Virus record (IMG/VR): IMGVR_UViG_2648501669_000002
Span: 1-27,386 of that record
Origin: a virus
Lineage: Duplodnaviria > Heunggongvirae > Uroviricota > Caudoviricetes
DNA: 27,386 bases
Strand: one strand, 5' to 3'
The stretch's first letter is position 1. Every line of letters starts with the position of its first letter. The position numbers and the translations under genes were made by a program. Below are positions 3,337 through 15,178 of this stretch, piece by piece. A model generated the notes under the pieces. The model did not search any database. It was not told the origin of the DNA and worked only from the letters and a program-made list of their open reading frames with translations.

Positions 3337-3540
3337 ATGAACAAAAAGACCTGGTTTCGCGCATACATGTGGGCGCTGGTATGCGTCCTCGTTTCTCTCA
3401 TTCTGTATGCAGGACTACTCCCCCGAATGATTTCATCAGACAGCTCCTTCCTGGTATTGCTGGGCATTTTCATTGCCATGCTGTACCCGGCAGGCGTTGT
3501 TCGCCTTTTCAGTAGGTACATCAAGGAAATCAAACAATGA
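3337..3540 (+). CDS. Small membrane protein (67 aa, two predicted TM helices)
   Basis: Track ORF with AAAGGA SD. Two hydrophobic stretches (WALVCVLVSLILYAGLL and FLVLLGIFIAMLYPAGVV). Stop overlaps the start of the SPFH gene (ATGA at 3537-3540). Confidence 0.55.
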   Translation: MNKKTWFRAYMWALVCVLVSLILYAGLLPRMISSDSSFLVLLGIFIAMLYPAGVVRLFSRYIKEIKQ

Positions 3541-4367
3541 AGAAATTCAAACTCTTTCAGATTCTCCCGCTTTTTGCTGCCATCCTGCTGGTTGGTTGCG
3601 ATCGCGTTGAGCCAGGTAATGTGGGCATCAAAGTCAACAAACTGGGCGACGACAAAGGCGTCGGTGAAGTGGTTGGCGTTGGACGCTACTGGACAGGCTG
3701 GAATACAGAGGTTTACATCTTCCCAACCTTCAAACAAATGAAGACCTACGATGAGCCGTTCAGCTTTCAGATGAGTGACGGCACAACCATCGGCTATCAC
3801 ATCGGTGTGGCCTACAAGGTTGATCCATCCAAAGTTACTACAGTGTTTCAGACCTACCGCAAAGGCGTGGATGACATTACCGACACTGACCTGCGCCAGA
3901 AGATCGCCGACGCACTCAACCGACTGGCCAGCAAAATGACCACCGATAAATTTATCGACGGTGGCAAGTCTGAACTGCTGGATTCAGCACTTAAAGACAT
4001 TCAGGAGGAAATGACACCTATCGGCATTCAGGTAATGAGCCTCTCTTATGTCGGTAAACCGGAATACCCACCAACCGTTATCGACAGCATTAATGCCAAA
4101 GTTACGGCAAACCAGAAAACCCTGCAACGCGAACAGGAAGTCAAGCAACGTGAAGCAGAAGCCAACATGTTGCGCGCAGAAGCTGCCGGACAGGCTGATG
4201 CCATTCGCACAAAAGCCCAGGCTGAAGCCGACGCCATTCGTTTGCGTGGTGAAGCTCTGCGCCAGAACCCCGGCGTTATGGAGCTGGAAGCAATCAACAA
4301 ATGGAACGGCACGCTGCCGCAATACATGACCAGTAATACTGCTGTTCCGTTTGTTCCGGTGAAGTAA
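3537..4367 (+). CDS. SPFH/band-7 (prohibitin/HflK-like) domain lipoprotein
   Basis: Track ORF of 276 aa. N-terminal signal peptide with lipobox (LLVGC). Central region plus a Q/E/A/R-rich coiled-coil tail (QREQEVKQREAEANMLRAEAAGQADAIRTKAQAEADAIRLRGEA) is typical of SPFH proteins. Confidence 0.7.
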   Translation: MKKFKLFQILPLFAAILLVGCDRVEPGNVGIKVNKLGDDKGVGEVVGVGRYWTGWNTEVYIFPTFKQMKTYDEPFSFQMSDGTTIGYHIGVAYKVDPSKVTTVFQTYRKGVDDITDTDLRQKIADALNRLASKMTTDKFIDGGKSELLDSALKDIQEEMTPIGIQVMSLSYVGKPEYPPTVIDSINAKVTANQKTLQREQEVKQREAEANMLRAEAAGQADAIRTKAQAEADAIRLRGEALRQNPGVMELEAINKWNGTLPQYMTSNTAVPFVPVK

Positions 4368-4581: not shown

Positions 4582-4719
4582 TCCATGTCACTGTCAGAAG
4601 ATTAACCCATGTACACACAAAAAAACCGCTTGCCATGCCGTAATCAGTCAGGTTACATTTCCGCTGCACCTCATAAAACGGGTGCCGGGTTTCGCAGCCT
4701 GCTGACAACCAAAGCGCAC

Positions 4720-4740
4720 AACCGCGCCAGCGGTTTTTTT
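4720..4740 (+). terminator. Candidate rho-independent terminator
   Basis: Read directly: stem AACCGC/GCGGTT with GCCA loop, followed by a 7-T run (AACCGCGCCAGCGGTTTTTTT). Confidence 0.5.
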
Positions 4741-4752
4741 GTGCGTACTGTA

Positions 4753-4781
4753 TTGCCACGTCTTTTTCGCACACGAATTAT
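4753..4781 (+). promoter_or_regulatory. Candidate sigma70 promoter (TTGCCA-17 nt-AATTAT)
   Basis: Read directly; predicted start site falls at the 5' edge of the structured GC-rich element. Not scored computationally. Confidence 0.35.
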
Positions 4782-4788
4782 GGCGGGG

Positions 4789-4850
4789 CGTACGGGGCCG
4801 ACTTCGGTCGGGCCGGGTTCTTTGGTTGCCGGTACTGCGAACCCCGTACG
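4789..4850 (+). other. GC-rich nested stem-loop element (possible structured 5' leader, small RNA or protein-binding site)
   Basis: 9-bp inverted repeat CGTACGGGG (4789-4797) / CCCCGTACG (4842-4850) enclosing a 5-bp stem with UUCG tetraloop (4798-4811) and CCGG-containing dyads; non-coding in any convincing frame. Confidence 0.3.
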
Positions 4851-4919
4851 TCTCGCCACCCACAGTTTCGCAGCTCTGGATGGTGAGTTTTCAAAACTTA
4901 CAACCAAAGAGGCCACCCC

Positions 4920-5150
4920 ATGGCAAACCGCAAACAGCACCGCGCTATCGCGGAGCGTCGTCACATCCAGACTGAAATCAACCGCAGACTTTCCCGCGCA
5001 TTCCGCGTCGCTAAAATCATGCACATCAATATGCTGCATGAGCGTAGCTGCGAACTTTCAAACCTCTATTCATCCGCTGTTTTCAGCTATCTGGCGGATG
5101 ATCTGCGCGAGCTTCAGCAGCTCATCCAGCAGCAAAACAAACTCCATTAA
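4920..5150 (+). CDS. Hypothetical small basic protein (76 aa)
   Basis: Track ORF with AAAGAGG SD 7 nt upstream; first gene downstream of the promoter and leader candidate. Confidence 0.45.
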   Translation: MANRKQHRAIAERRHIQTEINRRLSRAFRVAKIMHINMLHERSCELSNLYSSAVFSYLADDLRELQQLIQQQNKLH

Positions 5151-5222
5151 TTCCTGTTCCGGGCCTTTCCTGCACCTTGCGGCGGGAGGCCTTCGCACAT
5201 CTGTAGTAAAGAGAATTGCAGC

Positions 5223-5612
5223 ATGATTGACGCTCATGACTTCACAAGATGGGTGCGGACACAGGACACCCGTCTGGCTCCCGTTCTTCAGGGATTATTT
5301 GATCTTTACATCCGTGGTCGTGACAACAGAGCACGCACTACAAAACCGGAGAATGCGGACACCCTTTATTTCACAGTAGACGACTGCTACCGCGTGGACT
5401 TCACACCACACGGGCTGGCGTTGCACTGCCTGACACCACACGGCGAATCACTGCTGGCGTATTACGACTCCCCGGCCTCCGTATTCGCGGCAATGCTGGC
5501 GCATCGCACTGCTGGCGGGTGTGCCTCGCTGAGTGAATACACCGCTGAATTTAACCGCCTTTCCGCCATCTTCTCGCAGGAGTGGCAGCGCGTGACGGGA
5601 TACCAGCCATGA
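5223..5612 (+). CDS. Hypothetical protein (129 aa), translationally coupled to gpA
   Basis: Track ORF with AAAGAG SD; stop overlaps the ATG of the replication gene (ATGA at 5609-5612). Confidence 0.55.
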   Translation: MIDAHDFTRWVRTQDTRLAPVLQGLFDLYIRGRDNRARTTKPENADTLYFTVDDCYRVDFTPHGLALHCLTPHGESLLAYYDSPASVFAAMLAHRTAGGCASLSEYTAEFNRLSAIFSQEWQRVTGYQP

Positions 5613-8434
5613 GCGAGTTTGCATGGAGCTGGAATGAACCACGACCAGCCATTGATCCGGCCAGATTTACGGAGCGCAGGCAGGAAACTGAAACCGACCT
5701 GCAACGCGCCATCCGTTACTACCTTGAGGCAGACAAAAGGGCACAGGAAGAACAGGAAGCGAAGGAAGAAGCCTTTTTCGCACAATCCGCCATGGGTAAA
5801 AAACTCATGGCATCCCTTGAGGAAGCCGGACAGCGTGAAAAGCTGGCACAGAGCATCATCAGTAAGCGCCGGGCAACAGAACAAGACCCAGTAGCCCGTG
5901 CCTTTGCTACACTAAAGGCACTACCTGTTTATCTGCGTGAACCACTGAGCCGCCACCTCTCTTTCCTGCGCAAAAAACAGGAAGCCGATCGCCAGAAAGG
6001 CAAAAAGAGCTGGCAGGCGGAACGCTATGCACGCGGAACCCTGCGCAAAATATTCGAACGTCTGGATCGCACTGACGGACGCTGGCTGACACCGGGTTAT
6101 CGCTCCCTTGCCGGGCGCGAACGCCTGGACGATTTGCTTTACCTGCCGCAGCTCAACAAGCACCAGATACAGACGCTGGCCACCATGATCGCGGCGATGT
6201 TCAGCAGCACCTTCGAAACACTCTGCGATGGCTTTGGTGCCAGAGATGGCGAGCTGACCATGGATGTAATGTTGAAGGCTTACCGGATGCTGGCTCGTAT
6301 CGCATTACGCCTGCACATCATGCCGCCACATTACGAAGCCCTGAACAAGAGCGAACCGGATACGGAACTGCTGCCGGGTGCAATCCTTCGCCTGACCTGT
6401 GCGGACTGGTGGAAACGCAAACTGTGGCTGTTACGTTGCGAGTGGAGAGAAGAACAACTCCGCGCCGCCTGTCTGGTTTCCAGAAAAACATCGCCTTATC
6501 TGAGCCAGGACGCGTTAAGCGAGTTTCGCGCACAGCGCGAGAAAACACGCGATTTCCTGAAAAGTTTCATGCTGGAAAACGAAGACGGGTTCACGATTGA
6601 TCTCGAGACAGTGTATTACGCGGGAGTAAGTAACCCGGTTCACCGTAAGGCAGAAATGATGGCCACCATGAAGGGGCTGGAACTTCTGGCTGAAGCCCGT
6701 GGTGACAAAGCGGTGTTTCTGACTGTCACCTGCCCGTCAAAATACCACGCAACAACGGAGAACGGTCATCCGAATCCCAAATGGAACGGGGCCACCATGC
6801 GCGACTCCAGCGATTACCTGGTTAACACGTTTTTTGCGGCGGTCCGCAAGAAACTGAACCGCGACGGCCTGCGCTGGTATGGCATCCGCACGGTGGAGCC
6901 TCACCATGACGGCACCGTGCACTGGCATATGATGGTCTTTGCCCATCCGGAAGAAATCGACACCATTGTGTCCCACACCCGCGATATTGCCATTCAGGAA
7001 GATCGTCACGAGCTGGGCGATGATATTACTCCGCGCTTTAAGGCGGAGTATGTAGACGGCTCAAAAGGCACGCCAACCAGCTACATCGCCACCTACATCG
7101 GAAAGAACCTGGACAGCCGCGCCGTGGATGGCATCGACCCGAAAACGGGCAAGCCACGCGTTGACCACGAAACAGGAAAATCAATGGCCGAGAGCGTGGA
7201 GCGCGCCATCGGCTGGGCGCGCCTTCACCGGGTCCGCCAGTTCCAGTTCTTTGGCATTCCCTCCCGTCAGGTGTGGCGTGAACTCCGCCGCCTTGCCAGC
7301 CAGATGGCACGCAACCCGGAAGGCCAGCAACGGCTGAAGGATGACGCAATGGACGCGGTTCTTGCTGCCGCTGATGCCGGATGTTTTGCCACCTACATTG
7401 AGAAACAGGGCGGCGTACTTGTTCCACGCAAAGACTACCTGATTCGCACCGCCTACGACCTCGCAGATGAGCTGAACGATTACGGTGAACAGAGCGTACA
7501 GATTTACGGGATCTGGTCGCCGCTCATCGGGGAGTCTTCCCGCGTATGTACACATCCGGATAACTGGAAGCTGGTAAGACGCAAACCGGAAGCGGGAGAC
7601 AGCGCCCGCGAAAATGGTTTTGACCTTCAGGGCGGCCCTGCCGCCCCTTGGACTCATGGCAATAACTGTCCCCGTGTACAGGAAACAGGCAACAGCGGGA
7701 CAGAACTGTCGGAAGAGCAACCAACACCGTGGCCGCAGATCCCTGACAGCGTTGATGTGGATGAATGGATGCGCTCACTGAAACGGCACGAACGCCGGGC
7801 GCTGATGCGTTCGCTGCGTGACAAACAGGCAAAAAACAGCAGTGATGAAATGCAGAGCTGGACACAGAGCCGCAAACAGCCGCGACCTTTGCCTGATAAC
7901 CACGAGTTACTCGCTAAAGAATGGCGGGAGTCTGCTGAATCTCTCGGCCTGCATATTGGTGAACAGCAGATGCAGCACCTGTTACGGGGCGGCAGTCTGT
8001 ACGTTGACGGCAGCATCATTGCACCGCAGGGATTTGAAATTGTACGCAAACCGGATACCCGCCCGGACAGCCGAATCACGCAGCTCTGGCAGCGCCTGAG
8101 CCGTAATCACGGCGTAAGCAGCACGGAGATCCGCCATAACCCGGTCGCCAGTTATCTGGAACAGCTAGGGGCATCAGACCCCGAAGCCGCCGCACGCCTG
8201 GCATCCACACTTCAGCAAGACCAGAACACCATGAAAACACCCGTTACCGTGCTTTCTGACATGCTGCGCGCCATCCGTGACGCAGAGCACGCACAGAGAA
8301 TCAGTGAAACCACTGAACGCGCCCGCCGCAAAGCAAACCTGCTGCGGGGTGGCCTGACCAGTGGAAACAAAAAACAGACAGAAACGGGATTCACAAATCC
8401 CGTAAATGAGCAAAAAACGCGCCGCGATATATGA
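5609..8434 (+). CDS. A: Rolling-circle replication initiation endonuclease, P2 gpA family
   Basis: Track ORF 5582..8434 (GTG at 5582; ATG at 5609 coupled to the upstream stop is preferred). Contains the HUH-type motif VEPHHDGTVHWHMMVFAH and a paired-tyrosine segment TSYIATYIGKN, as in the P2 gpA endonuclease domain, plus an FLTVTCPSKYH motif. At 941 aa it is longer than P2 gpA (about 760 aa, from memory). Confidence 0.85.
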   Translation: MSEFAWSWNEPRPAIDPARFTERRQETETDLQRAIRYYLEADKRAQEEQEAKEEAFFAQSAMGKKLMASLEEAGQREKLAQSIISKRRATEQDPVARAFATLKALPVYLREPLSRHLSFLRKKQEADRQKGKKSWQAERYARGTLRKIFERLDRTDGRWLTPGYRSLAGRERLDDLLYLPQLNKHQIQTLATMIAAMFSSTFETLCDGFGARDGELTMDVMLKAYRMLARIALRLHIMPPHYEALNKSEPDTELLPGAILRLTCADWWKRKLWLLRCEWREEQLRAACLVSRKTSPYLSQDALSEFRAQREKTRDFLKSFMLENEDGFTIDLETVYYAGVSNPVHRKAEMMATMKGLELLAEARGDKAVFLTVTCPSKYHATTENGHPNPKWNGATMRDSSDYLVNTFFAAVRKKLNRDGLRWYGIRTVEPHHDGTVHWHMMVFAHPEEIDTIVSHTRDIAIQEDRHELGDDITPRFKAEYVDGSKGTPTSYIATYIGKNLDSRAVDGIDPKTGKPRVDHETGKSMAESVERAIGWARLHRVRQFQFFGIPSRQVWRELRRLASQMARNPEGQQRLKDDAMDAVLAAADAGCFATYIEKQGGVLVPRKDYLIRTAYDLADELNDYGEQSVQIYGIWSPLIGESSRVCTHPDNWKLVRRKPEAGDSARENGFDLQGGPAAPWTHGNNCPRVQETGNSGTELSEEQPTPWPQIPDSVDVDEWMRSLKRHERRALMRSLRDKQAKNSSDEMQSWTQSRKQPRPLPDNHELLAKEWRESAESLGLHIGEQQMQHLLRGGSLYVDGSIIAPQGFEIVRKPDTRPDSRITQLWQRLSRNHGVSSTEIRHNPVASYLEQLGASDPEAAARLASTLQQDQNTMKTPVTVLSDMLRAIRDAEHAQRISETTERARRKANLLRGGLTSGNKKQTETGFTNPVNEQKTRRDI
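8384..8403. repeat. Palindrome ACGGGATT-CACA-AATCCCGT (copy 1, inside the 3' end of gpA)
   Basis: Read directly: perfect 8-bp arms. Confidence 0.45.
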
Positions 8435-8456
8435 AGCGCGCACAAAACAGGCGAAA

Positions 8457-8476
8457 GCGGGAGTTCAGAATCCCGT
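8457..8476. repeat. Related imperfect palindrome GCGGGAGTTCAGAATCCCGT (copy 2, upstream of parM)
   Basis: Shares the GAATCCCGTAA half with copy 1; centres about 73 bp apart; 34 nt upstream of the parM ATG. Confidence 0.4.
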
Positions 8477-8509
8477 AACCGATTAATTAATCAACATAAG
8501 GAAATCGAC

Positions 8510-9469
8510 ATGAAAATTTGTATCGACGACGGCTCCACCAACATCAAGCTGGCATGGACTGAGAACGGCGAACGCCGCAACGCCATCAGCCCGAACAGCT
8601 TCAAGTCGGAATGGTCAGCGCCGTTCGGTGGCACGCAGCCCGCGAACTACATGCTTGATGGCGTGCGCTATGGTTTTGATCCGGTCAGCGATCGCTTTGT
8701 CCAGACGACCGACACGCAATACCAGTACAGCGATGTGAATGTTATTGCCATTCATCATGCGCTGGTCAAATCAGGCATCACACCACAGGAGGTGGATGTG
8801 GTTGTCACCCTGCCACTGAGCGAGTATTTCGATACAAACGCACAGCCGGACATGGCCAACATCAGCCGCAAAAAAGCGAACGTTATGCGCCCGGTGGAGT
8901 ACCAGAACGGCGAAGCATTCACTATCCGTAACGTGCGGGTTATGCCTGAATCCATTCCGGCAGGCTTTAAAGCACTGGCTGACATGAGTCCGTTTGAATC
9001 CCTGCTGATTGTGGATTTGGGCGGAACCACGCTGGATGTGGCAAAGGTTCAGGGGCAACTGGCAGGTATCAGCCAGGTGTTTTGCGATCCACACGTAGGC
9101 GTTTCTCTGATGGCCGATGCCGTGCTGTCGGTGATGGCCACCAACGGTATGCGTACCAGTCACCACATCGCTAATACCATTATCGAACATCGCCACGATG
9201 AAGCCTGGCTGCGCCAGCACATCCACAATGACGCGCATTACGCCAGCCTGATGGCAGTTATTCGTGAAAAGGAGGAAACACTGAAACAACGCGTGATCCG
9301 CGCGCTGGCGGGTTTTTCGGGTTACGGGCGGGTGATGGTTGTCGGTGGAGGGGCGGAGATTGTGGCACCCGCCATCCGCGAAGCCTGCGGAGTTAATGCG
9401 ACTTTCATCGCGGACGGGGTGCCACAGTTTGCTCTGGTTAATGGGCTGTACGCAATGGACAAGGAGTAA
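8510..9469 (+). CDS. parM: ParM-like actin-type segregation ATPase
   Basis: Track ORF of 319 aa. N-terminus MKICIDDGSTNIKLAW closely matches plasmid R1 ParM (MLVFIDDGSTNIKLQW, from memory), with further ParM-like segments (ISPNSFK, QYSDVNVIAIHHAL, DLGGTTLD). AAGGA SD. Confidence 0.85.
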   Translation: MKICIDDGSTNIKLAWTENGERRNAISPNSFKSEWSAPFGGTQPANYMLDGVRYGFDPVSDRFVQTTDTQYQYSDVNVIAIHHALVKSGITPQEVDVVVTLPLSEYFDTNAQPDMANISRKKANVMRPVEYQNGEAFTIRNVRVMPESIPAGFKALADMSPFESLLIVDLGGTTLDVAKVQGQLAGISQVFCDPHVGVSLMADAVLSVMATNGMRTSHHIANTIIEHRHDEAWLRQHIHNDAHYASLMAVIREKEETLKQRVIRALAGFSGYGRVMVVGGGAEIVAPAIREACGVNATFIADGVPQFALVNGLYAMDKE

Positions 9470-9473
9470 ACCA

Positions 9474-9785
9474 ATGACGACACCAACCAGACGGATAAGT
9501 TTCTATCTGAAGCCCGCCGCCGTCAAGAACGAAGGCGAAGCATGCGCCTGGCTGGACAGCCTTACACCAGAAGCCCGCAAAAGCGGCCAACGCGTGGCTT
9601 TTCTGGCCGGGCTGGCACTTCTGAAAATGAATCCGGCAGAGGCTTACCGACTGGCTGCATGGGCTGATGATGAAGCGTTATCAGTGACACAGACCAGGAC
9701 AGAACGCCCCGCATCACAGCCAGTATCAACCGCACAGATAACCAGCCAGATGGCCGGGAATATCCAGGCGTTATTTCCTGAATAA
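9474..9785 (+). CDS. parR: ParR-like centromere-binding adaptor
   Basis: In-frame Met 46 of track ORF 9339..9785, 4 nt after the parM stop. RRISFYLKP...LDSLTPEARKSGQRVAFLAGLAL parallels R1 ParR (RRTIAFKLNP...LDSIPQGERSRLNRAALTAGLAL, from memory). Confidence 0.7.
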   Translation: MTTPTRRISFYLKPAAVKNEGEACAWLDSLTPEARKSGQRVAFLAGLALLKMNPAEAYRLAAWADDEALSVTQTRTERPASQPVSTAQITSQMAGNIQALFPE

Positions 9786-9791
9786 CACAAC

Positions 9792-9813
9792 ATCAGGGCA
9801 TATTTGCCCTGAT
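9792..9813. other. Perfect hairpin (9-bp stem ATCAGGGCA / TGCCCTGAT, 4-nt loop) just after the parR stop
   Basis: Read directly; no trailing U-tract, so a regulatory or processing role is as likely as termination. Confidence 0.3.
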
Positions 9814-9848: not shown

Positions 9849-9876
9849 TTGAATAACACAAATTACATGTTATGAT
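9849..9876 (+). promoter_or_regulatory. Candidate sigma70 promoter (TTGAAT-16 nt-TATGAT) for the 9900..10660 cassette
   Basis: Read directly; the -35 overlaps the second copy of the 12-bp direct repeat TGAATAACACAA (9779-9790 and 9850-9861). Confidence 0.35.
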
Positions 9877-9899
9877 TAACTCATAAGTAACCCCCGTTT

Positions 9900-10286
9900 G
9901 TGTCTTACGTTATGAATGATCAAGATTATGGGCTTGATACCCTATTGGATATGCACGGCTACCAGCACCACATGGATAATGGCTACTGGTGGAAGATTGA
10001 AGCCTACCGGGTCAGCCCAAGCCCATTCAGACCCCACGGGATACGTTACAATCTGACATTACATGACCAGTACAATTCCCGCATATTTGGGATGGATAAT
10101 GCTCATGGAATAAAACCACCGAAGAAGGGCCGTTTCACAGGGAAATTAACTGTTTACGACCATGTGCACCGCACAACATTTGACAAAGGCTATCCCTATG
10201 AATTCATTTCTGCGGAACAGCTTTTATCTGACTTCTTCGATAACGTAGATCGCATCATTGACGAAATCACAAGGGGGAATCAATGA
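9900..10286 (+). CDS. Uncharacterised protein (128 aa), candidate toxin/effector of a two-gene module
   Basis: Track ORF (GTG at 9900; first ATG at 9912). AT-richer than flanking phage genes. His/aromatic-rich segments (HGYQHHMDNGYWWK, YDHVHRTTFDKGYPYEF). Stop overlaps the start of the next gene (ATGA at 10283-10286). Confidence 0.6.
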   Translation: MSYVMNDQDYGLDTLLDMHGYQHHMDNGYWWKIEAYRVSPSPFRPHGIRYNLTLHDQYNSRIFGMDNAHGIKPPKKGRFTGKLTVYDHVHRTTFDKGYPYEFISAEQLLSDFFDNVDRIIDEITRGNQ

Positions 10287-10660
10287 AAGCCCGTATCGGG
10301 ATTATCCCTGAAAATATCCTCCGCCAGCGGCTACTGGATGTCGCCAGAGGAAAACGTAAACCACTGCCAGATGAACCAAAAGTATGGTTTTCTTCACTGC
10401 ACGCTGTAGGGCAAGCTCTGAGTAACGAAAACATTGCTCTGTTACGTCTGATGGATGAAGAAAAACCTCAAACAATGACAGAGTTGGCAGAAATGTCAGG
10501 CAGGAAACTGAGCAATCTTTCAGTAACCTTAAAAATGCTGAGCGGCTACGGTTTTGTCAGCCTGGAAAAGAAAGGCAATACCATTCTCCCGAAAGCATTA
10601 TTCACCGATTTTGAAATCATCATTGATCCATCTGTCGGAACCACTCATCGGGCCGCCTGA
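10283..10660 (+). CDS. Winged-HTH DNA-binding protein (125 aa), candidate antitoxin/regulator
   Basis: Track ORF. Segment PQTMTELAEMSGRKLSNLSVTLKMLSGYGFVSLEKKGNTI has a MarR/wHTH-like helix-turn-helix-wing pattern; translationally coupled to the upstream ORF. Confidence 0.65.
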   Translation: MKARIGIIPENILRQRLLDVARGKRKPLPDEPKVWFSSLHAVGQALSNENIALLRLMDEEKPQTMTELAEMSGRKLSNLSVTLKMLSGYGFVSLEKKGNTILPKALFTDFEIIIDPSVGTTHRAA

Positions 10661-10850
10661 TCCCCACCAAACCAGGGCGATAATCACGCATCGCCCTGCT
10701 GCACAATAGTGCACAAAAAACGCGCTTTTTCTGCGCGCAGGTGACGGGGGAACAGTCCGCGCTTCAGGGGTAAATGGCACCTCCTGAAAGATGCCACAGC
10801 ATCATAATAGAATGAGCGTGTTGTTCACGACACACGCAAAAACAAGAAAA

Positions 10851-10913: not shown

Positions 10914-11171
10914 CTATCCAGCCTGCAACAGCTCCAGCGCCATCTGTTTTTCTTCCGGGCGCATCCGTTCAATCAACAGCTTTAACACACCGTTATCCAG
11001 CCCGCTGGGCACCAGTGTGTGCGAGTAGGTCAGATTCATCACCCAGGTATGTCCGCACTCGAGACGGGTGCAACGGTAATACACATCAGCAAACTGATCG
11101 GTTTTCCAGGCTGTTTTCTCAATCACTGCACGAGCACCACAGCAATGACACCGCGCTTTCTGTCTGCGCAT
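10914..11171 (-). CDS. ogr: Ogr/Delta-family zinc-finger late transcription activator
   Basis: In-frame Met 24 of track ORF 10914..11240, preceded on the minus strand by GGGAGGTGGAAA. Cys pattern C-x2-C...(23 aa)...C-x4-C (CHCC...CTRLEC) matches the P2 Ogr zinc-finger topology (CPLC...CQNVNC, from memory). Confidence 0.7.
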   Translation of the reverse strand: MRRQKARCHCCGARAVIEKTAWKTDQFADVYYRCTRLECGHTWVMNLTYSHTLVPSGLDNGVLKLLIERMRPEEKQMALELLQAG

Positions 11172-11236
11172 TTTCCACCTCCCGGAACAACGTTTTACTG
11201 CTGCTGATTTTACCCGCTCCTTCTCCATGTCGCACA

Positions 11237-12271
11237 TCACTCCGTGGCTTCATTAAATTCAAGAATAAATTCCACCTGCCCCAGTCGCCTGATATCAGGG
11301 TCACTATTGATTCCCTCCATAATCAGGCGGCGCATCGGAATAACCTCATCTCTGTAATATGCCTCGCGGGATTTCAGCGGATCACCAAGCCCGGCCGTAT
11401 TTGCGGGAATGATGCCGGCAAGTCCGGGTGGAAAACGGTGCGCAACGAGCTGATCCTGGGCACTGATGGTTTTTATATTCAGGAATTCATCTTTTGTACC
11501 TGAATCCCCGATAGGGATCACCTTAACGCCTTCTTTGTCTCCGCCAGGTATATTGATAAACATGGATTTAAAATTGCCCGCCCCTTTTGACGCCTCTATC
11601 TTTTTACGGAATTCCGCCTCGAGCTCGGGATCCATGTCCGGGTCAGTGGAATACAGGATATAACCAAGATGTGCGCCGTTCTTGTAATACTTGCGGCGAA
11701 AGCGGGTGGCATCCACATTCAGCATGGCAGATTCCATCCCGTGAATATAATCCGGGACACCGTAAACCTGCTGTTGTGGGTCATAAATTGCCACGAACAC
11801 CACTTCGCCTGGCGGGTAAACGAGATCTTCCAGTGCCGCCTGCACAATCACCGTGCCACCTTCGTTGTTGCGTCGCAGGTACAGAGAAGGCAACGTATGC
11901 AGGCGCACCACCCGCCCGAAGCCATTGCGCACTTTAAGCAGCCCCATATCCCCGAATATCAGCAGATTGGTCACTGCTGCCGCCATGGCGGCGTGTGTCA
12001 TACCACCACCACCCCGAAAACCCTGCATGATCATATTCACGCGCGCACGCAATACCGCGCCGTGATACGGTGCGATATTGGACAACATGGCGAGATCCAT
12101 GCGCTCAATGGGCGGCGTGTACCAGCCGTTATAGCCATCCCAGAGCGAGCCGTAATAACAGCCCCATGCAGCGACCGGTTCCGGGTCACCAAATTCAATA
12201 AACGTCATTTTGCTGGCTGTTTTTTTTGCCACGCCATCGTGTAACACGGGGTATTTTTTCTTTTTACTCAT
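11237..12271 (-). CDS. Q: Portal protein, P2 gpQ-like
   Basis: Track ORF of 344 aa, the same length as P2 gpQ, directly downstream of and overlapping the terminase ATPase gene on the same strand, in the conserved P2 Q-P arrangement. Confidence 0.85.
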   Translation of the reverse strand: MSKKKKYPVLHDGVAKKTASKMTFIEFGDPEPVAAWGCYYGSLWDGYNGWYTPPIERMDLAMLSNIAPYHGAVLRARVNMIMQGFRGGGGMTHAAMAAAVTNLLIFGDMGLLKVRNGFGRVVRLHTLPSLYLRRNNEGGTVIVQAALEDLVYPPGEVVFVAIYDPQQQVYGVPDYIHGMESAMLNVDATRFRRKYYKNGAHLGYILYSTDPDMDPELEAEFRKKIEASKGAGNFKSMFINIPGGDKEGVKVIPIGDSGTKDEFLNIKTISAQDQLVAHRFPPGLAGIIPANTAGLGDPLKSREAYYRDEVIPMRRLIMEGINSDPDIRRLGQVEFILEFNEATE

Positions 12272-14051
12272 CTGACAGGATCCATGTTGATTTGCGCTTG
12301 TGCTTATAGTTCAGGGGTTCATTACTTGCGGCATGAGCTATGGCAAAGAAGATGTCAGCGTGCCCGGTTTCTTCGCTACGTTCGGCGGTGAAAGTGACTT
12401 TATTGCCGCTGTTGGTGGATTCCTGACGAATGGCCAGGAATGATGCCGGAATATCCGTGGCTTCCTCATCCCACTCAATACGGTTGGCGTAAACCAGATC
12501 CAGCATCTTCATCACCAGGCGGTTTTTGGATTCCACGCTGTAATGAATGGCCACTGTTTCACGGCGGGCAAATCCCTGAACCAGCTCAAAGACACCGTAG
12601 CCAAGACCGGTGACGTCGATGCCGATAAACGTCATGTTATAGCGCGCCTTAATGCCGCGGATACGCTCTGCCATAAACTGGAATGACATGCTGCGCCAGT
12701 GGTGTTTTTCCAGCACGCGGAATCGTTCTGCCGCAACCAGCGGCGGTGCCAGCACAACAAATGTGGCGTTATCGCCGGAGCGCGCAGGATCAAAGCCGCC
12801 CCACACCTCACGGTTACCAAATGGCATGGGCTCTTCCGGGTGAAAATCCTCCCACGTACTGACATCAACACCACAACGCACAAGATCATCGAATTTAAAG
12901 ACGCTCTCTTTGTCATCCACAAACACACACATAAACAGCATATTGAACGCTGTTTCGTTGTATCTCTCGCGCAGCTCGTTGATATCAGCAAGGTTAAAGC
13001 CGCCGGCAATGGCATCTTCCAGCGTAACCACATAGCGCCACTGACCATCCGGACATTCACGCCCACCATCGCGCAGCTCATCAAAGGATGGAAACTCAAC
13101 CCCTTTTCGTTTCGGATCGCCTTTGCGCCATTCATCGCCAGACCAGAACGGGTAGCCCTGGTGTGTTTTGGATGACGGCGTGGAGAAATAGGTAATACGC
13201 CAGTGTTTATGGGTGGCCATCCCTGATGCCACTTCATTGAGACGGCGAAAACCGGGGATCCACAGGTATTCATCAATATACAGGTGGCCGCTGTTTGACT
13301 GCGCTGTGTTACTGTTGGTCGCCAGAAAATACAGTTCAGCCAGATTACTTAACTTAACCGGATTGCCTTTAATGGGAATGCCAAACTCTGTTTGTGCAAT
13401 TTTTACAATATAAGTACGGAACACTTCGGCCTGACGTTTTGATGCCGATAAAAATATCTGTGTGTCGCCGGTTAATACTGCATCTTCAAATGCCTCAAAC
13501 GCGAAGTAATACGTCGCCCCAATCTGGCGGGATTTAAGCAGGTTGCGTACACGGCGGAATTTGTTTTCACGCAGATGCAACTGATAAGCAAACAACTTTT
13601 TCGTAAACGGCTCAAAACTTTCAGCAGTCAGTCCGGAAACGTCATTAGTTTTGCGGGGACGCTCTTTCTTACCTGCACCTTTTTCTCCGCGTTCTTCTTT
13701 TCCATAACGGCCAGGCTGGGGAATGTCCACTCCCATTCGCGCAATCTCAGCCATTCGTTCCGTGTGCTTGTTTCTGACCGACATCAGTTTGACGTGATGA
13801 CCAATCAGGCGATCAAGCTCATCGTGTTCTTCCTGGGTCTTATGGTCACGTTCCGCCAGTACAGCGAGACGCCGGGCGATAACATCTTCCACGCCTTCCG
13901 TATTGAGCTGCGTGTACCACTCAAACTTTGTCGCCCAGTAATAAACAATTCGCGGGCTGTTCAGTCCGAGTTTCTTTTGTATTTCTTTTGGTGTGTGCCT
14001 TTTCAGATAGAGTGATTTTGCTGCGGCAATAACTTCTTCAGAATAAGCCAT
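12264..14051 (-). CDS. P: Terminase large (ATPase) subunit, P2 gpP-like
   Basis: Track ORF of 595 aa (P2 gpP is about 590 aa), divergent from the scaffold gene; sequence is of the P2-type terminase ATPase family (recognised from memory). Confidence 0.9.
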   Translation of the reverse strand: MAYSEEVIAAAKSLYLKRHTPKEIQKKLGLNSPRIVYYWATKFEWYTQLNTEGVEDVIARRLAVLAERDHKTQEEHDELDRLIGHHVKLMSVRNKHTERMAEIARMGVDIPQPGRYGKEERGEKGAGKKERPRKTNDVSGLTAESFEPFTKKLFAYQLHLRENKFRRVRNLLKSRQIGATYYFAFEAFEDAVLTGDTQIFLSASKRQAEVFRTYIVKIAQTEFGIPIKGNPVKLSNLAELYFLATNSNTAQSNSGHLYIDEYLWIPGFRRLNEVASGMATHKHWRITYFSTPSSKTHQGYPFWSGDEWRKGDPKRKGVEFPSFDELRDGGRECPDGQWRYVVTLEDAIAGGFNLADINELRERYNETAFNMLFMCVFVDDKESVFKFDDLVRCGVDVSTWEDFHPEEPMPFGNREVWGGFDPARSGDNATFVVLAPPLVAAERFRVLEKHHWRSMSFQFMAERIRGIKARYNMTFIGIDVTGLGYGVFELVQGFARRETVAIHYSVESKNRLVMKMLDLVYANRIEWDEEATDIPASFLAIRQESTNSGNKVTFTAERSEETGHADIFFAIAHAASNEPLNYKHKRKSTWILSDE

Positions 14052-14281: not shown

Positions 14282-15178
14282 ATGACGAAGCAGAAAACAG
14301 ACTGGGTTGTGGTTGCCACATCAGGCCCCACCATCGACGGTCGGGAAATTGATCCGAAGTGGCTGACGGATGCCGCCGAGGTTTACAACCCGGACGAGCG
14401 AGCCGCCATGCTCTGGCCATATCACGCCGATTCCGGATGGCGTGCCTTCACCAATAACTACGGCATTGTTGATGCCCTGAAAGTCGAAAAATTTGGTGAA
14501 AAGGTGCAGCTTAAAGCACGCCTGATCCCAAATCGCTTCCTGATTGAAGCCAATAAGGCCGGGCAGAAACTTTTTACCTCCATTGAAGTGCGGGAAAACT
14601 ATCTGGGCACGGGCAAATTCTTTGTGTCCGGTATCGCCGTGACGGATACCCCAGCCAGCATTAACACTACACGCCTGCAGTTTTCCATGGGGGAAGCCAT
14701 CCATATGGGCAACGCAGAGGCGCTGAATTTTACGCTGCAGCCTGATGATGAGCAGGCCAAGCGCAACTTCTTCTCCCGCTTCTTCTCATCTGACAATCAC
14801 CAACAGGGAATTTACCAAGCCATGAACGAAGAACAGTTCAGCCAGTTAATGGGTGCCATTAATAAAACCAGTGAACGCCTGGACGAGCTGGAAAAAAACG
14901 TCGCGCAGTTCAGCGCGAAGGATGCCCCGAAAGATACCGGTGATAACAAGCCGGAAGGCAGCACCGGCGATCAGGGGCAGGACAACGCAGAACAGAACAA
15001 CAAGGACGACAAAACCTTCACGCTGACCACCGAGCAGGGCGAAAAGCTGTTCTCCACAGTGAACGCCATCGCGGAGAAGGTTACCAGTATGGAAACCGCA
15101 TTTGCTGAACTCAGCAAGGACGCCACGAAGCTGCCGGGCAACAATCCGGCCGGTGGCGAAACTTTTAACCTGGTGTAA
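14282..15178 (+). CDS. O: Capsid scaffolding protein, P2 gpO-like
   Basis: Track ORF of 298 aa; N-terminal region (VVVATSGPTIDGREIDP...FVSGIAVTDTPAS) parallels P2 gpO; conserved position. Confidence 0.85.
   Translation: MTKQKTDWVVVATSGPTIDGREIDPKWLTDAAEVYNPDERAAMLWPYHADSGWRAFTNNYGIVDALKVEKFGEKVQLKARLIPNRFLIEANKAGQKLFTSIEVRENYLGTGKFFVSGIAVTDTPASINTTRLQFSMGEAIHMGNAEALNFTLQPDDEQAKRNFFSRFFSSDNHQQGIYQAMNEEQFSQLMGAINKTSERLDELEKNVAQFSAKDAPKDTGDNKPEGSTGDQGQDNAEQNNKDDKTFTLTTEQGEKLFSTVNAIAEKVTSMETAFAELSKDATKLPGNNPAGGETFNLV

Follow-up and report, generated by a model that had tools for sequence, protein, structure and literature searches.

The stretch of viral DNA analysed here, hereafter called the window, comprises the 27,386 nucleotides of the IMG/VR record IMGVR_UViG_2648501669_000002 (Caudoviricetes), and our analysis was directed towards two overlapping open reading frames (ORFs) located between positions 9900 and 10660. 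The first of these, ORF1, is related to the toxin genes of the TumE (DUF6516) family, while the second, ORF2, encodes a winged helix-turn-helix (wHTH) protein of the HVO_A0114 family. We consider it probable that the region represents a TumE-family toxin-antitoxin cassette of type II which is self-contained. The genes and signals of the cassette are as follows:

9912-10286, plus strand: ORF1 (tumE, TumE/DUF6516-family toxin gene) in its most likely extent, ATG start, 124 amino acids
9900-10286, plus strand: ORF1 read from an alternative GTG start, which would yield 128 amino acids
10283-10660, plus strand: ORF2, HVO_A0114-family wHTH gene, 125 amino acids, proposed antitoxin and autorepressor (TumA-like role)
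10271-10286, plus strand: translational coupling region, with a Shine-Dalgarno sequence at 10271-10278 and an ATGA overlap at 10283-10286
10652-10657, plus strand: Ala-Ala codons of the ORF2 C-terminus (...HRAA), candidate ssrA-like degradation signal
9849-9876, plus strand: cassette promoter, with -35 box TTGAAT (9849-9854), 16-nucleotide spacer and TG-extended -10 box TATGAT (9871-9876)
9870-9886, no strand assigned: candidate operator palindrome TTATGA-ttaac-TCATAA, the left half-site of which coincides with the -10 box

A preliminary description of this DNA, made from the sequence alone, had reported two coupled ORFs with an ATGA overlap at position 10283. Both are present as described, and the start/stop overlap is preceded, within ORF1, by the Shine-Dalgarno sequence AAGGGGGA, as read from the sequence; a 4-nucleotide overlap or a very short gap is the typical spacing of tumE and its partner gene throughout the family. 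The same description had assigned 128 amino acids to ORF1. While an ORF of this length does begin at GTG 9900, the true start is most likely ATG 9912, giving a protein of 124 residues, since the orthologue P0001 (94% identical) has 124 residues with the N-terminus MNDRDYGL and the other close homologues, which comprise 119-125 residues, start within a few residues of the same position. The AT-richer patch that had been noted was borne out as well, the guanine-plus-cytosine content being 0.43-0.46 over positions 9850-10600 as compared to 0.54-0.61 in the flanks. In comparison with two orthologous cassettes, the ratio of nonsynonymous to synonymous substitutions (dN/dS) amounted to 0.04-0.06 for both genes, indicating strong purifying selection; these ratios, together with the existence of hundreds of homologues, rule out that ORF1 and ORF2 are chance ORFs.

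Judged by sequence comparison, ORF1 belongs to the Pfam family PF20126 (TumE/DUF6516), so that the protein in which the preliminary description could name no domain can be assigned through its homologues. A large protein collection yielded 275 such homologues, nearly all of which were already annotated with PF20126, and the 120 listed among these share 53-94% identity with ORF1. They are named 'DUF6516 family protein' or 'toxin-antitoxin system TumE family protein' in NCBI and UniRef, and homologues as close as 60-62% identity already carry the latter name at NCBI. Within the clade to which the window protein belongs, PF20126.4 is directly matched by 29 of 74 members (52-94% identical to ORF1; best E value 7e-11). 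P0012, which is 62% identical to ORF1, reaches 33.8 bits at a cut-off of 23.4, and precomputed annotation assigns PF20126 to the 94%-identical P0001. Moreover, alignment of the clade profile by hhalign to that of an alphaproteobacterial clade that passes the Pfam threshold resulted in a probability of 99.8% and an E value of 9e-28 over 110 columns. The core of the family consists of PHG-x-x-Y-x-LTLH, R57, G-x-DNAH, DH-x-H, PY and DF, and the family-invariant residues, among them H42, Y46, H51, R57, N63, D83 and H86, are all intact in ORF1. Of the two histidine-rich motifs to which attention had been drawn earlier, DHVHRTT is indeed part of this core, with D83, H84 and H86 invariant or nearly so across the family, whereas the histidines of HGYQHH are unconserved and only G16 and G24-Y25-W26 are kept in that part of the protein. 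The AlphaFold2 model of ORF1 (predicted local distance difference test, pLDDT, 86.5; predicted template modelling score 0.81) has an alpha+beta fold in which two helices are placed on an antiparallel sheet, and it has no solved structural relative, as has been published for TumE (PMC10584680).

The TumE-TumA superfamily was described by Durairaj et al. (Nature 2023, PMC10584680), who found six TumE proteins, all from gammaproteobacterial pairs, to be toxic in Escherichia coli and to be neutralised by their cognate partners; for one toxin only, that of A. tepidum, a lowered incorporation of 35S-methionine indicated inhibition of translation. The module is thus not undescribed, as had been proposed, the more so as NCBI already names its homologues. 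In the literature searched, this is the only study that characterises the TumE family, and no report of a TumE protein in the hotspot of P2-like phages was found.

The second protein had been predicted to contain a winged-HTH-like segment, and profile searches and structural modelling agree in identifying ORF2 as a winged HTH of the HVO_A0114 family (PF25212). Residues 31-103 match this profile with 57.8 bits at a cut-off of 27.6, while the matches to MarR, ArsR and TrmB are weaker and the score on the NCBIfam ArsR/SmtB profile (25 bits) is well under the cut-off of 55. ORF2 also matches phrog_11214, and its homologues are named 'HVO_A0114 family putative DNA-binding protein' by NCBI. The AlphaFold2 model (pLDDT 84.6) predicts a wHTH core at residues 48-105, preceded by a strand-helix unit at the N-terminus and followed by a tail of low confidence at residues 116-125. 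According to Foldseek, the nearest solved folds are those of ArsR/SmtB/MarR repressors, and the core (about residues 48-105) superposes on ArsR, CzrA, SmtB and MarR with a probability of 1.0. As for these repressors, a palindromic target would be expected for a dimer of ORF2. The protein differs from them by its additional N-terminal strand-helix unit and its C-terminal Ala-Ala tail, and by its best family being HVO_A0114.

Whether the two genes co-occur elsewhere was a check that the preliminary description had proposed. Relatives were collected by scanning one genome per species, which gave at least 455 confirmed ones; the loci of the best 80 were fetched and, with four plasmid loci, made up a set of 84. 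In 83 of these, distributed across the Proteobacteria, a homologue of ORF2 lies directly downstream of tumE on the same strand, the single exception being a contig that ends 53 nucleotides after tumE. The order of tumE followed by a PF25212 gene persists in copies of only 36-43% identity from Alpha-, Beta- and Deltaproteobacteria, and no conserved gene was found upstream of tumE, the largest cluster of upstream ORFs comprising four related loci. The toxin-first arrangement with a winged-helix partner in second place is the dominant one in Proteobacteria. The effector-first, regulator-second organisation of toxin-antitoxin type suggested earlier agrees with a TumE-family gene that is followed by its wHTH partner. 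Such an order of genes, with the toxin first and a DNA-binding antitoxin second, is that of HigBA-type systems, and the cassette further resembles classical type II systems in the start/stop overlap and the palindrome over the promoter, and its antitoxin may be labile as in these systems. Toxins of the RelE/HigB type, in contrast, have no sequence or fold relationship to TumE, and the partner in the window has an ArsR/MarR-like wHTH instead of an Xre-type HTH or a ribbon-helix-helix domain.

A promoter and a downstream terminator of its own had also been attributed to the gene pair. The promoter can be upheld. It is sigma-70-like and located 24 nucleotides upstream of GTG 9900; the consensus scan alone did not exceed chance (two sites found, 2.2 expected), but the site is credible because the same arrangement of -35 and -10 boxes recurs upstream of orthologues in other genomes. 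The layout TTGAnn, 15-18 nucleotides, TATGAT is present in 13 of 20 loci with a TATGA-type palindrome, and both boxes are identical in the Salmonella cassette. The terminator can be upheld only in part: the hairpin at 10720-10738 is GC-rich, but its run of T is found on the minus strand, and it is positioned in the conserved phage backbone, outside of the cassette, and no canonical plus-strand terminator was found after ORF2.

Overlapping the -10 box is a palindrome which fits a candidate operator for autoregulation by ORF2. Its core, TAT[GC]A-N5-T[GC]ATA, occurs a single time in the window (9871-9885). When counted within 100 nucleotides upstream of tumE, the core was present in 75 of 91 loci, 9-33 nucleotides before the start, as compared to a background of six hits in 1.69 Mb of surrounding sequence; most of the other loci contain variants with one mismatch. 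The half-sites vary by clade, being TTATGA/TCATAA in enterobacterial loci and TTATCA/TGATAA in Legionella, betaproteobacterial and other loci, and such a symmetric switch of both half-sites is the kind of change expected for a dimeric binding protein. In addition, 23 of the 24 nucleotides around the palindrome are identical between the window and the cassette of E. coli STEC639 (L001), as against an overall identity of only 75.7% for the two cassettes.

A further feature of the partner protein is its C-terminus. Among 80 non-identical loci, the partner ends in -AA in 47 (59%) and in -A in 62, the background being 3% and 11%, respectively, for ORFs of at least 150 amino acids from the same loci. 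The tail ahead of the two alanines is variable in sequence and, in ORF2, modelled with low confidence. In the ssrA-type signal, which is read by ClpXP, two C-terminal alanines form the key element, and the frequent Ala-Ala ending of the partner suggests a putative degradation signal of this type that a protease may recognise.

Taken together, these features may be combined into the following model. By homology, TumE would arrest growth by blocking protein synthesis, probably through its conserved His/Asp/Asn/Arg site (PHG.RY.LTLH ... G.DNAH ... DHxH) acting on RNA or on the translation machinery. A dimer of the winged-helix protein ORF2 would bind to TTATGA-N5-TCATAA over the -10 box and repress the operon, and ORF2 would also neutralise TumE by direct binding. 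Its flexible tail ending in Ala-Ala might render it a substrate of a ClpXP-type protease and, by this, a short-lived antitoxin. Once synthesis of the pair stops, the antitoxin would decay and TumE would shut down translation; loss of the prophage or shut-off of transcription by an infecting phage are conceivable triggers. In this way the cassette would stabilise the prophage, abort infections by competing phages, or both. Membership in the family, the strict pairing, the operator-like palindrome, the Ala-Ala ending, the position in the hotspot and the limits of the cassette are shown by our comparisons, and toxicity, neutralisation by a partner and inhibition of translation are known from other members of the family. 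We infer, at this stage, that the wHTH protein is the antitoxin and is degraded and that TumE acts as an RNase, and likewise what the cassette does for its carrier.

Several points weigh against the assignment as a TumE-type toxin-antitoxin pair. When ORF1 of the window was itself submitted to hmmscan, no match was reported from Pfam, NCBIfam or PADLOC, which explains why no domain could be named at first, and a PHROGs profile search of ORF1 gave nothing significant; among the profile searches that had been suggested for the two proteins, it is ORF2 that matches a family (PF25212), while ORF1 stays blank in Pfam and PADLOC. Membership of the window protein in the TumE family is consequently based on its close homologues and on profile comparison rather than on a direct match. 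RNase activity of TumE is a proposal that is unproven in the source paper, and the partners described there are mostly encoded upstream of the toxin, with one partner family being RelB-like (PMC10584680). The synthetic genes used for the six validated TumA proteins have lengths from which these antitoxins seem to comprise about 76-109 amino acids. As the validated partners seem to be shorter and are mostly located upstream, a downstream HVO_A0114 partner of 125 amino acids has apparently never been tested as an antitoxin. Finally, the distant loci L004, L085 and L096 harbor an extra gene for about 100 amino acids before that for TumE, which leaves open that in loci of this type another protein could be the real antitoxin and the wHTH protein only a regulator.

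These additional genes (L004 2678-2995, L085 1187-1504, L096 2205-2504) encode 99-105 amino acids without a Pfam family and overlap the start of tumE. The loci belong to a large, mainly alphaproteobacterial TumE clade that is found on plasmids and conjugative elements, with the operon order small ORF, TumE, HVO_A0114 wHTH protein and recombinase, and may represent a three-component variant of the operon. A homology search seeded with the distant TumE protein of L004 recovered an alphaproteobacterial clade only, and thereby none of the six TumE proteins for which experiments have been published.

It might accordingly be argued that the pair in the window is no toxin-antitoxin system at all, ORF2 being just a transcription factor that controls ORF1, and ORF1 a non-toxic enzyme or an accessory protein that binds nucleic acids. 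The apparent absence of this type of wHTH partner from the validated antitoxins, as far as the synthetic gene lengths tell, and the separate small upstream gene in some distant loci, which could encode the real antitoxin, would be in line with this, and the evidence for the operator bears on regulation only and not on neutralisation. We nevertheless regard this explanation as quite improbable: the catalytic-looking invariant residues are all retained in ORF1, six of six family members tested were toxic (PMC10584680), and a 4-nucleotide overlap, near-universal pairing, a compact mobile cassette and an Ala-Ala tail are what one typically sees in type II toxin-antitoxin systems and not in an enzyme with its regulator. 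A toxin-antitoxin cassette of the TumE family is the reading we prefer. The window pair is like the published TumE-TumA pairs in that ORF1 homologues of 60-94% identity carry PF20126, in the small alpha+beta fold, and in being a compact two-gene operon with a DNA-binding partner; it is unlike the validated pairs in that its toxin gene comes first and its partner is a 125-residue HVO_A0114 wHTH protein in place of an apparently shorter and mostly upstream one.

The preliminary description had further placed the pair in a cargo hotspot of a phage, which is in agreement with the genes that surround it. Those outside of the cassette were assigned by Pfam:

5582-8434, plus strand: gpA replication protein
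8510-9469, plus strand: ParM (StbA_N/ParM)
about 9474-9785, plus strand: Plasmid_stab_B (StbB-like)
9867-10660, plus strand: TumE-wHTH cassette from the promoter -10 box/operator to the ORF2 stop, as delimited by the shared segment and the backbone
10914-11240, minus strand: Ogr/Delta-like zinc finger protein
11237-12271, minus strand: portal protein gpQ
12264-14051, minus strand: terminase gpP
14282-15178, plus strand: scaffold protein gpO

The cassette, of about 0.8 kb, occupies the cos-proximal variable slot between gpA and gpQ of a P88/P2-like prophage. Among phage records, the flanks are matched most closely by P88-like phages (genus Xuanwuvirus) as well as by related phages of E. coli; in one of these, P88_4B11 (Xuanwuvirus), the slot behind the same partition genes is filled by an unrelated gene for 196 amino acids. 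The backbone from 8400 to 9785-9811 and from 10656 to 10829 is about 95% identical in about 1,400 of 5,426 complete E. coli genomes. Between these flanks the content of the slot varies and includes ead/Ea22-like, DUF3800 and Rrf2-type genes and, in one genome (H66), a Doc/Phd toxin-antitoxin pair. On the right side, the conserved backbone resumes at position 10656, within the end of ORF2, the stop codon of which is located at 10658-10660. When the DNA of the pair was searched for in these 5,426 genomes and in 50,697 phage records, no copy came up, and only the 3' flank from 10656 onward was matched.

Related cassettes are found in the same slot of other prophages. In a P2-like prophage of E. 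coli STEC639, only the segment corresponding to 9867-10660 is shared with the hotspot of the window, at 75.7% identity. In Salmonella enterica, P0001 is recorded on 21 contigs; the four that were examined were all P2-like prophages with a gpA of 763 amino acids, no ParMR, and the cassette in the gpA-gpQ slot. The cassette is thus present at this position in three P2-like backbones, namely those of the window, of E. coli STEC639 and of Salmonella. The gpA of the window itself comprises 950 amino acids, of which residues 194-513 form the Phage_GPA domain.

The edges of the slot show some further features. An exact 12-nucleotide direct repeat, TGAATAACACAA, is located at 9779-9790 and 9850-9861 around a hairpin with a 9-bp stem (9792-9813). 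The stop codon of the StbB-like gene falls within the first copy, the second shares nucleotides with the -35 box of the tumE promoter, and an exchange of cassettes at the slot's left edge may have left the repeat as a scar. The backbone segment 10656-10829 on the other side holds two hairpins, at about 10673-10698 and at 10720-10738. By manual comparison, a candidate cos sequence, GGTGACGGGGGAACAGTCC at 10741-10759, agrees at only 12 of 19 positions with the cosL sequence of P2, GGCGAGGCGGGGAAAGCAC, annotated at positions 1-19 of the phage record, and alignments to P2 cosL and to the ends of the P88_4B11 record gave no clear position for the cos site.

The position of the cassette has a bearing on its possible function, as the gpA-gpQ slot of P2-like phages is known as a hotspot of anti-phage systems (Rousset 2022, PMC9122126; PMC13586616). 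The cassette resembles the cargo described there, which includes old, tin and many defence systems (PMC9122126), in occupying the same slot next to the packaging end, with varied content between conserved flanks. One may therefore consider abortive infection, brought about by the molecular parts already outlined, in which a phage would shut off host transcription or inactivate or deplete the wHTH protein, so that TumE is freed and translation stopped before the invader has finished. The documented role of the slot, the differences in its content among backbones that are otherwise 95% identical and the independent acquisition of the cassette by three different P2-like backbones are all consistent with a function of this kind. 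Furthermore, a study in Nucleic Acids Research from 2026 predicted many uncharacterised proteins encoded in the hotspots of P2 and P4 to be antiviral and found six of eight randomly chosen P4-satellite loci of unknown function to be protective (PMC13586616). On the other hand, ORF1 has no match at E ≤ 1 in PADLOC-DB v2.0, where ORF2 has only weak generic wHTH matches to CasR/CARF-HTH (E values 5e-5 to 4e-3). Unlike the known defence cargo of the hotspot, the TumE-wHTH pair is without a model in PADLOC v2 and without a known anti-phage phenotype, and the literature searched holds no report of defence by TumE/DUF6516. Moreover, in none of the 80 loci from the species genomes is a gene for portal, terminase or gpA of P2 type located within 6 kb, the other copies of tumE being located on plasmids, beside Trb conjugative-transfer genes or beside recombinase/integrase genes, and tblastn revealed no relative of ORF1 in the 50,697 deposited phage genomes. 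We therefore regard anti-phage abortive infection as possible, if rather on the unlikely side.

The genes directly upstream of the cassette point in another direction. Following ParM (8510-9469) and Plasmid_stab_B (about 9474-9785), the pair might serve, alongside these partition genes, as an addiction module that acts by post-segregational killing and keeps the prophage, or some extrachromosomal form thereof, from being lost. Such a role would be in accordance with the classical Doc/Phd pair that occupies the slot in H66, a genome with the same backbone, and with the many TumE-wHTH pairs on plasmids and conjugative elements. However, ParM/StbB are part of the conserved backbone of this lineage whatever the content of the slot, the Salmonella prophages carry the cassette without ParMR, and the matches of the backbone in E. 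coli are chromosomal at 1,932 of 1,934 places, so that addiction, too, is an explanation that we put forward tentatively and would not call likely. The two roles, stabilisation of a prophage or plasmid and defence by abortive infection, are both plausible and are not mutually exclusive.

Irrespective of the cassette, most of the approximately 1,400 matching E. coli genomes share the DNA encoding ParM and Plasmid_stab_B (8400-9785) at about 95% identity, and similar genes are present in P88_4B11. Because the ParM/StbB genes are conserved, the plasmid-type partition system is a fixed feature of this chromosomally integrated lineage of the P2 family. The early region upstream of gpA contains additional elements. 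Two RNAs were found above the gathering score of Rfam on the plus strand, the Hfq-binding RNA isrK (4666-4740, 65.9 bits) and C4 antisense RNA (4776-4863, 87.1 bits). Both are located within or beside an Ash-family ORF (4609-5226), an arrangement reminiscent of the antisense immunity element of the P1/P7 type. A gene for an SPFH/Band 7 family protein (108 bits) at 3537-4367 on the plus strand may be a further accessory or cargo gene.

A more far-reaching proposal would be that TumE together with an HVO_A0114 wHTH protein forms a distinct branch of the TumE superfamily, in which the wHTH protein with its degradation tail acts as antitoxin, autorepressor and infection sensor at once, and that the pair constitutes a new abortive-infection system of P2-like prophages that is absent from defence catalogues. 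We consider this proposal, as a whole, doubtful. The 'Helicase+DUF2290' system of the hotspot, the DUF2290 protein of which has a weak HHpred match to PF20126/DUF6516 (87.8%, E value 2.9; PMC9122126 supplement), hints that folds of the TumE kind may be remotely connected with a system encoded there.

For annotation, the pair should thus be described as a TumE-family toxin gene with an HVO_A0114-type partner gene, and not as a new system. What goes beyond the literature we found is the wHTH class of the partner, the conserved operator over the -10 box, the Ala-Ala tail and the recurrent capture of the cassette by the P2 hotspot, and the Ala-Ala ending suggests how the partner could be made unstable. 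Its recurrence in three P2-like prophages makes the cassette a reasonable candidate for phage defence, which, if true, would link the TumE family to anti-phage immunity. In addition, a toxic and easily handled enterobacterial TumE would be a convenient model for finding the biochemical target of the toxin.

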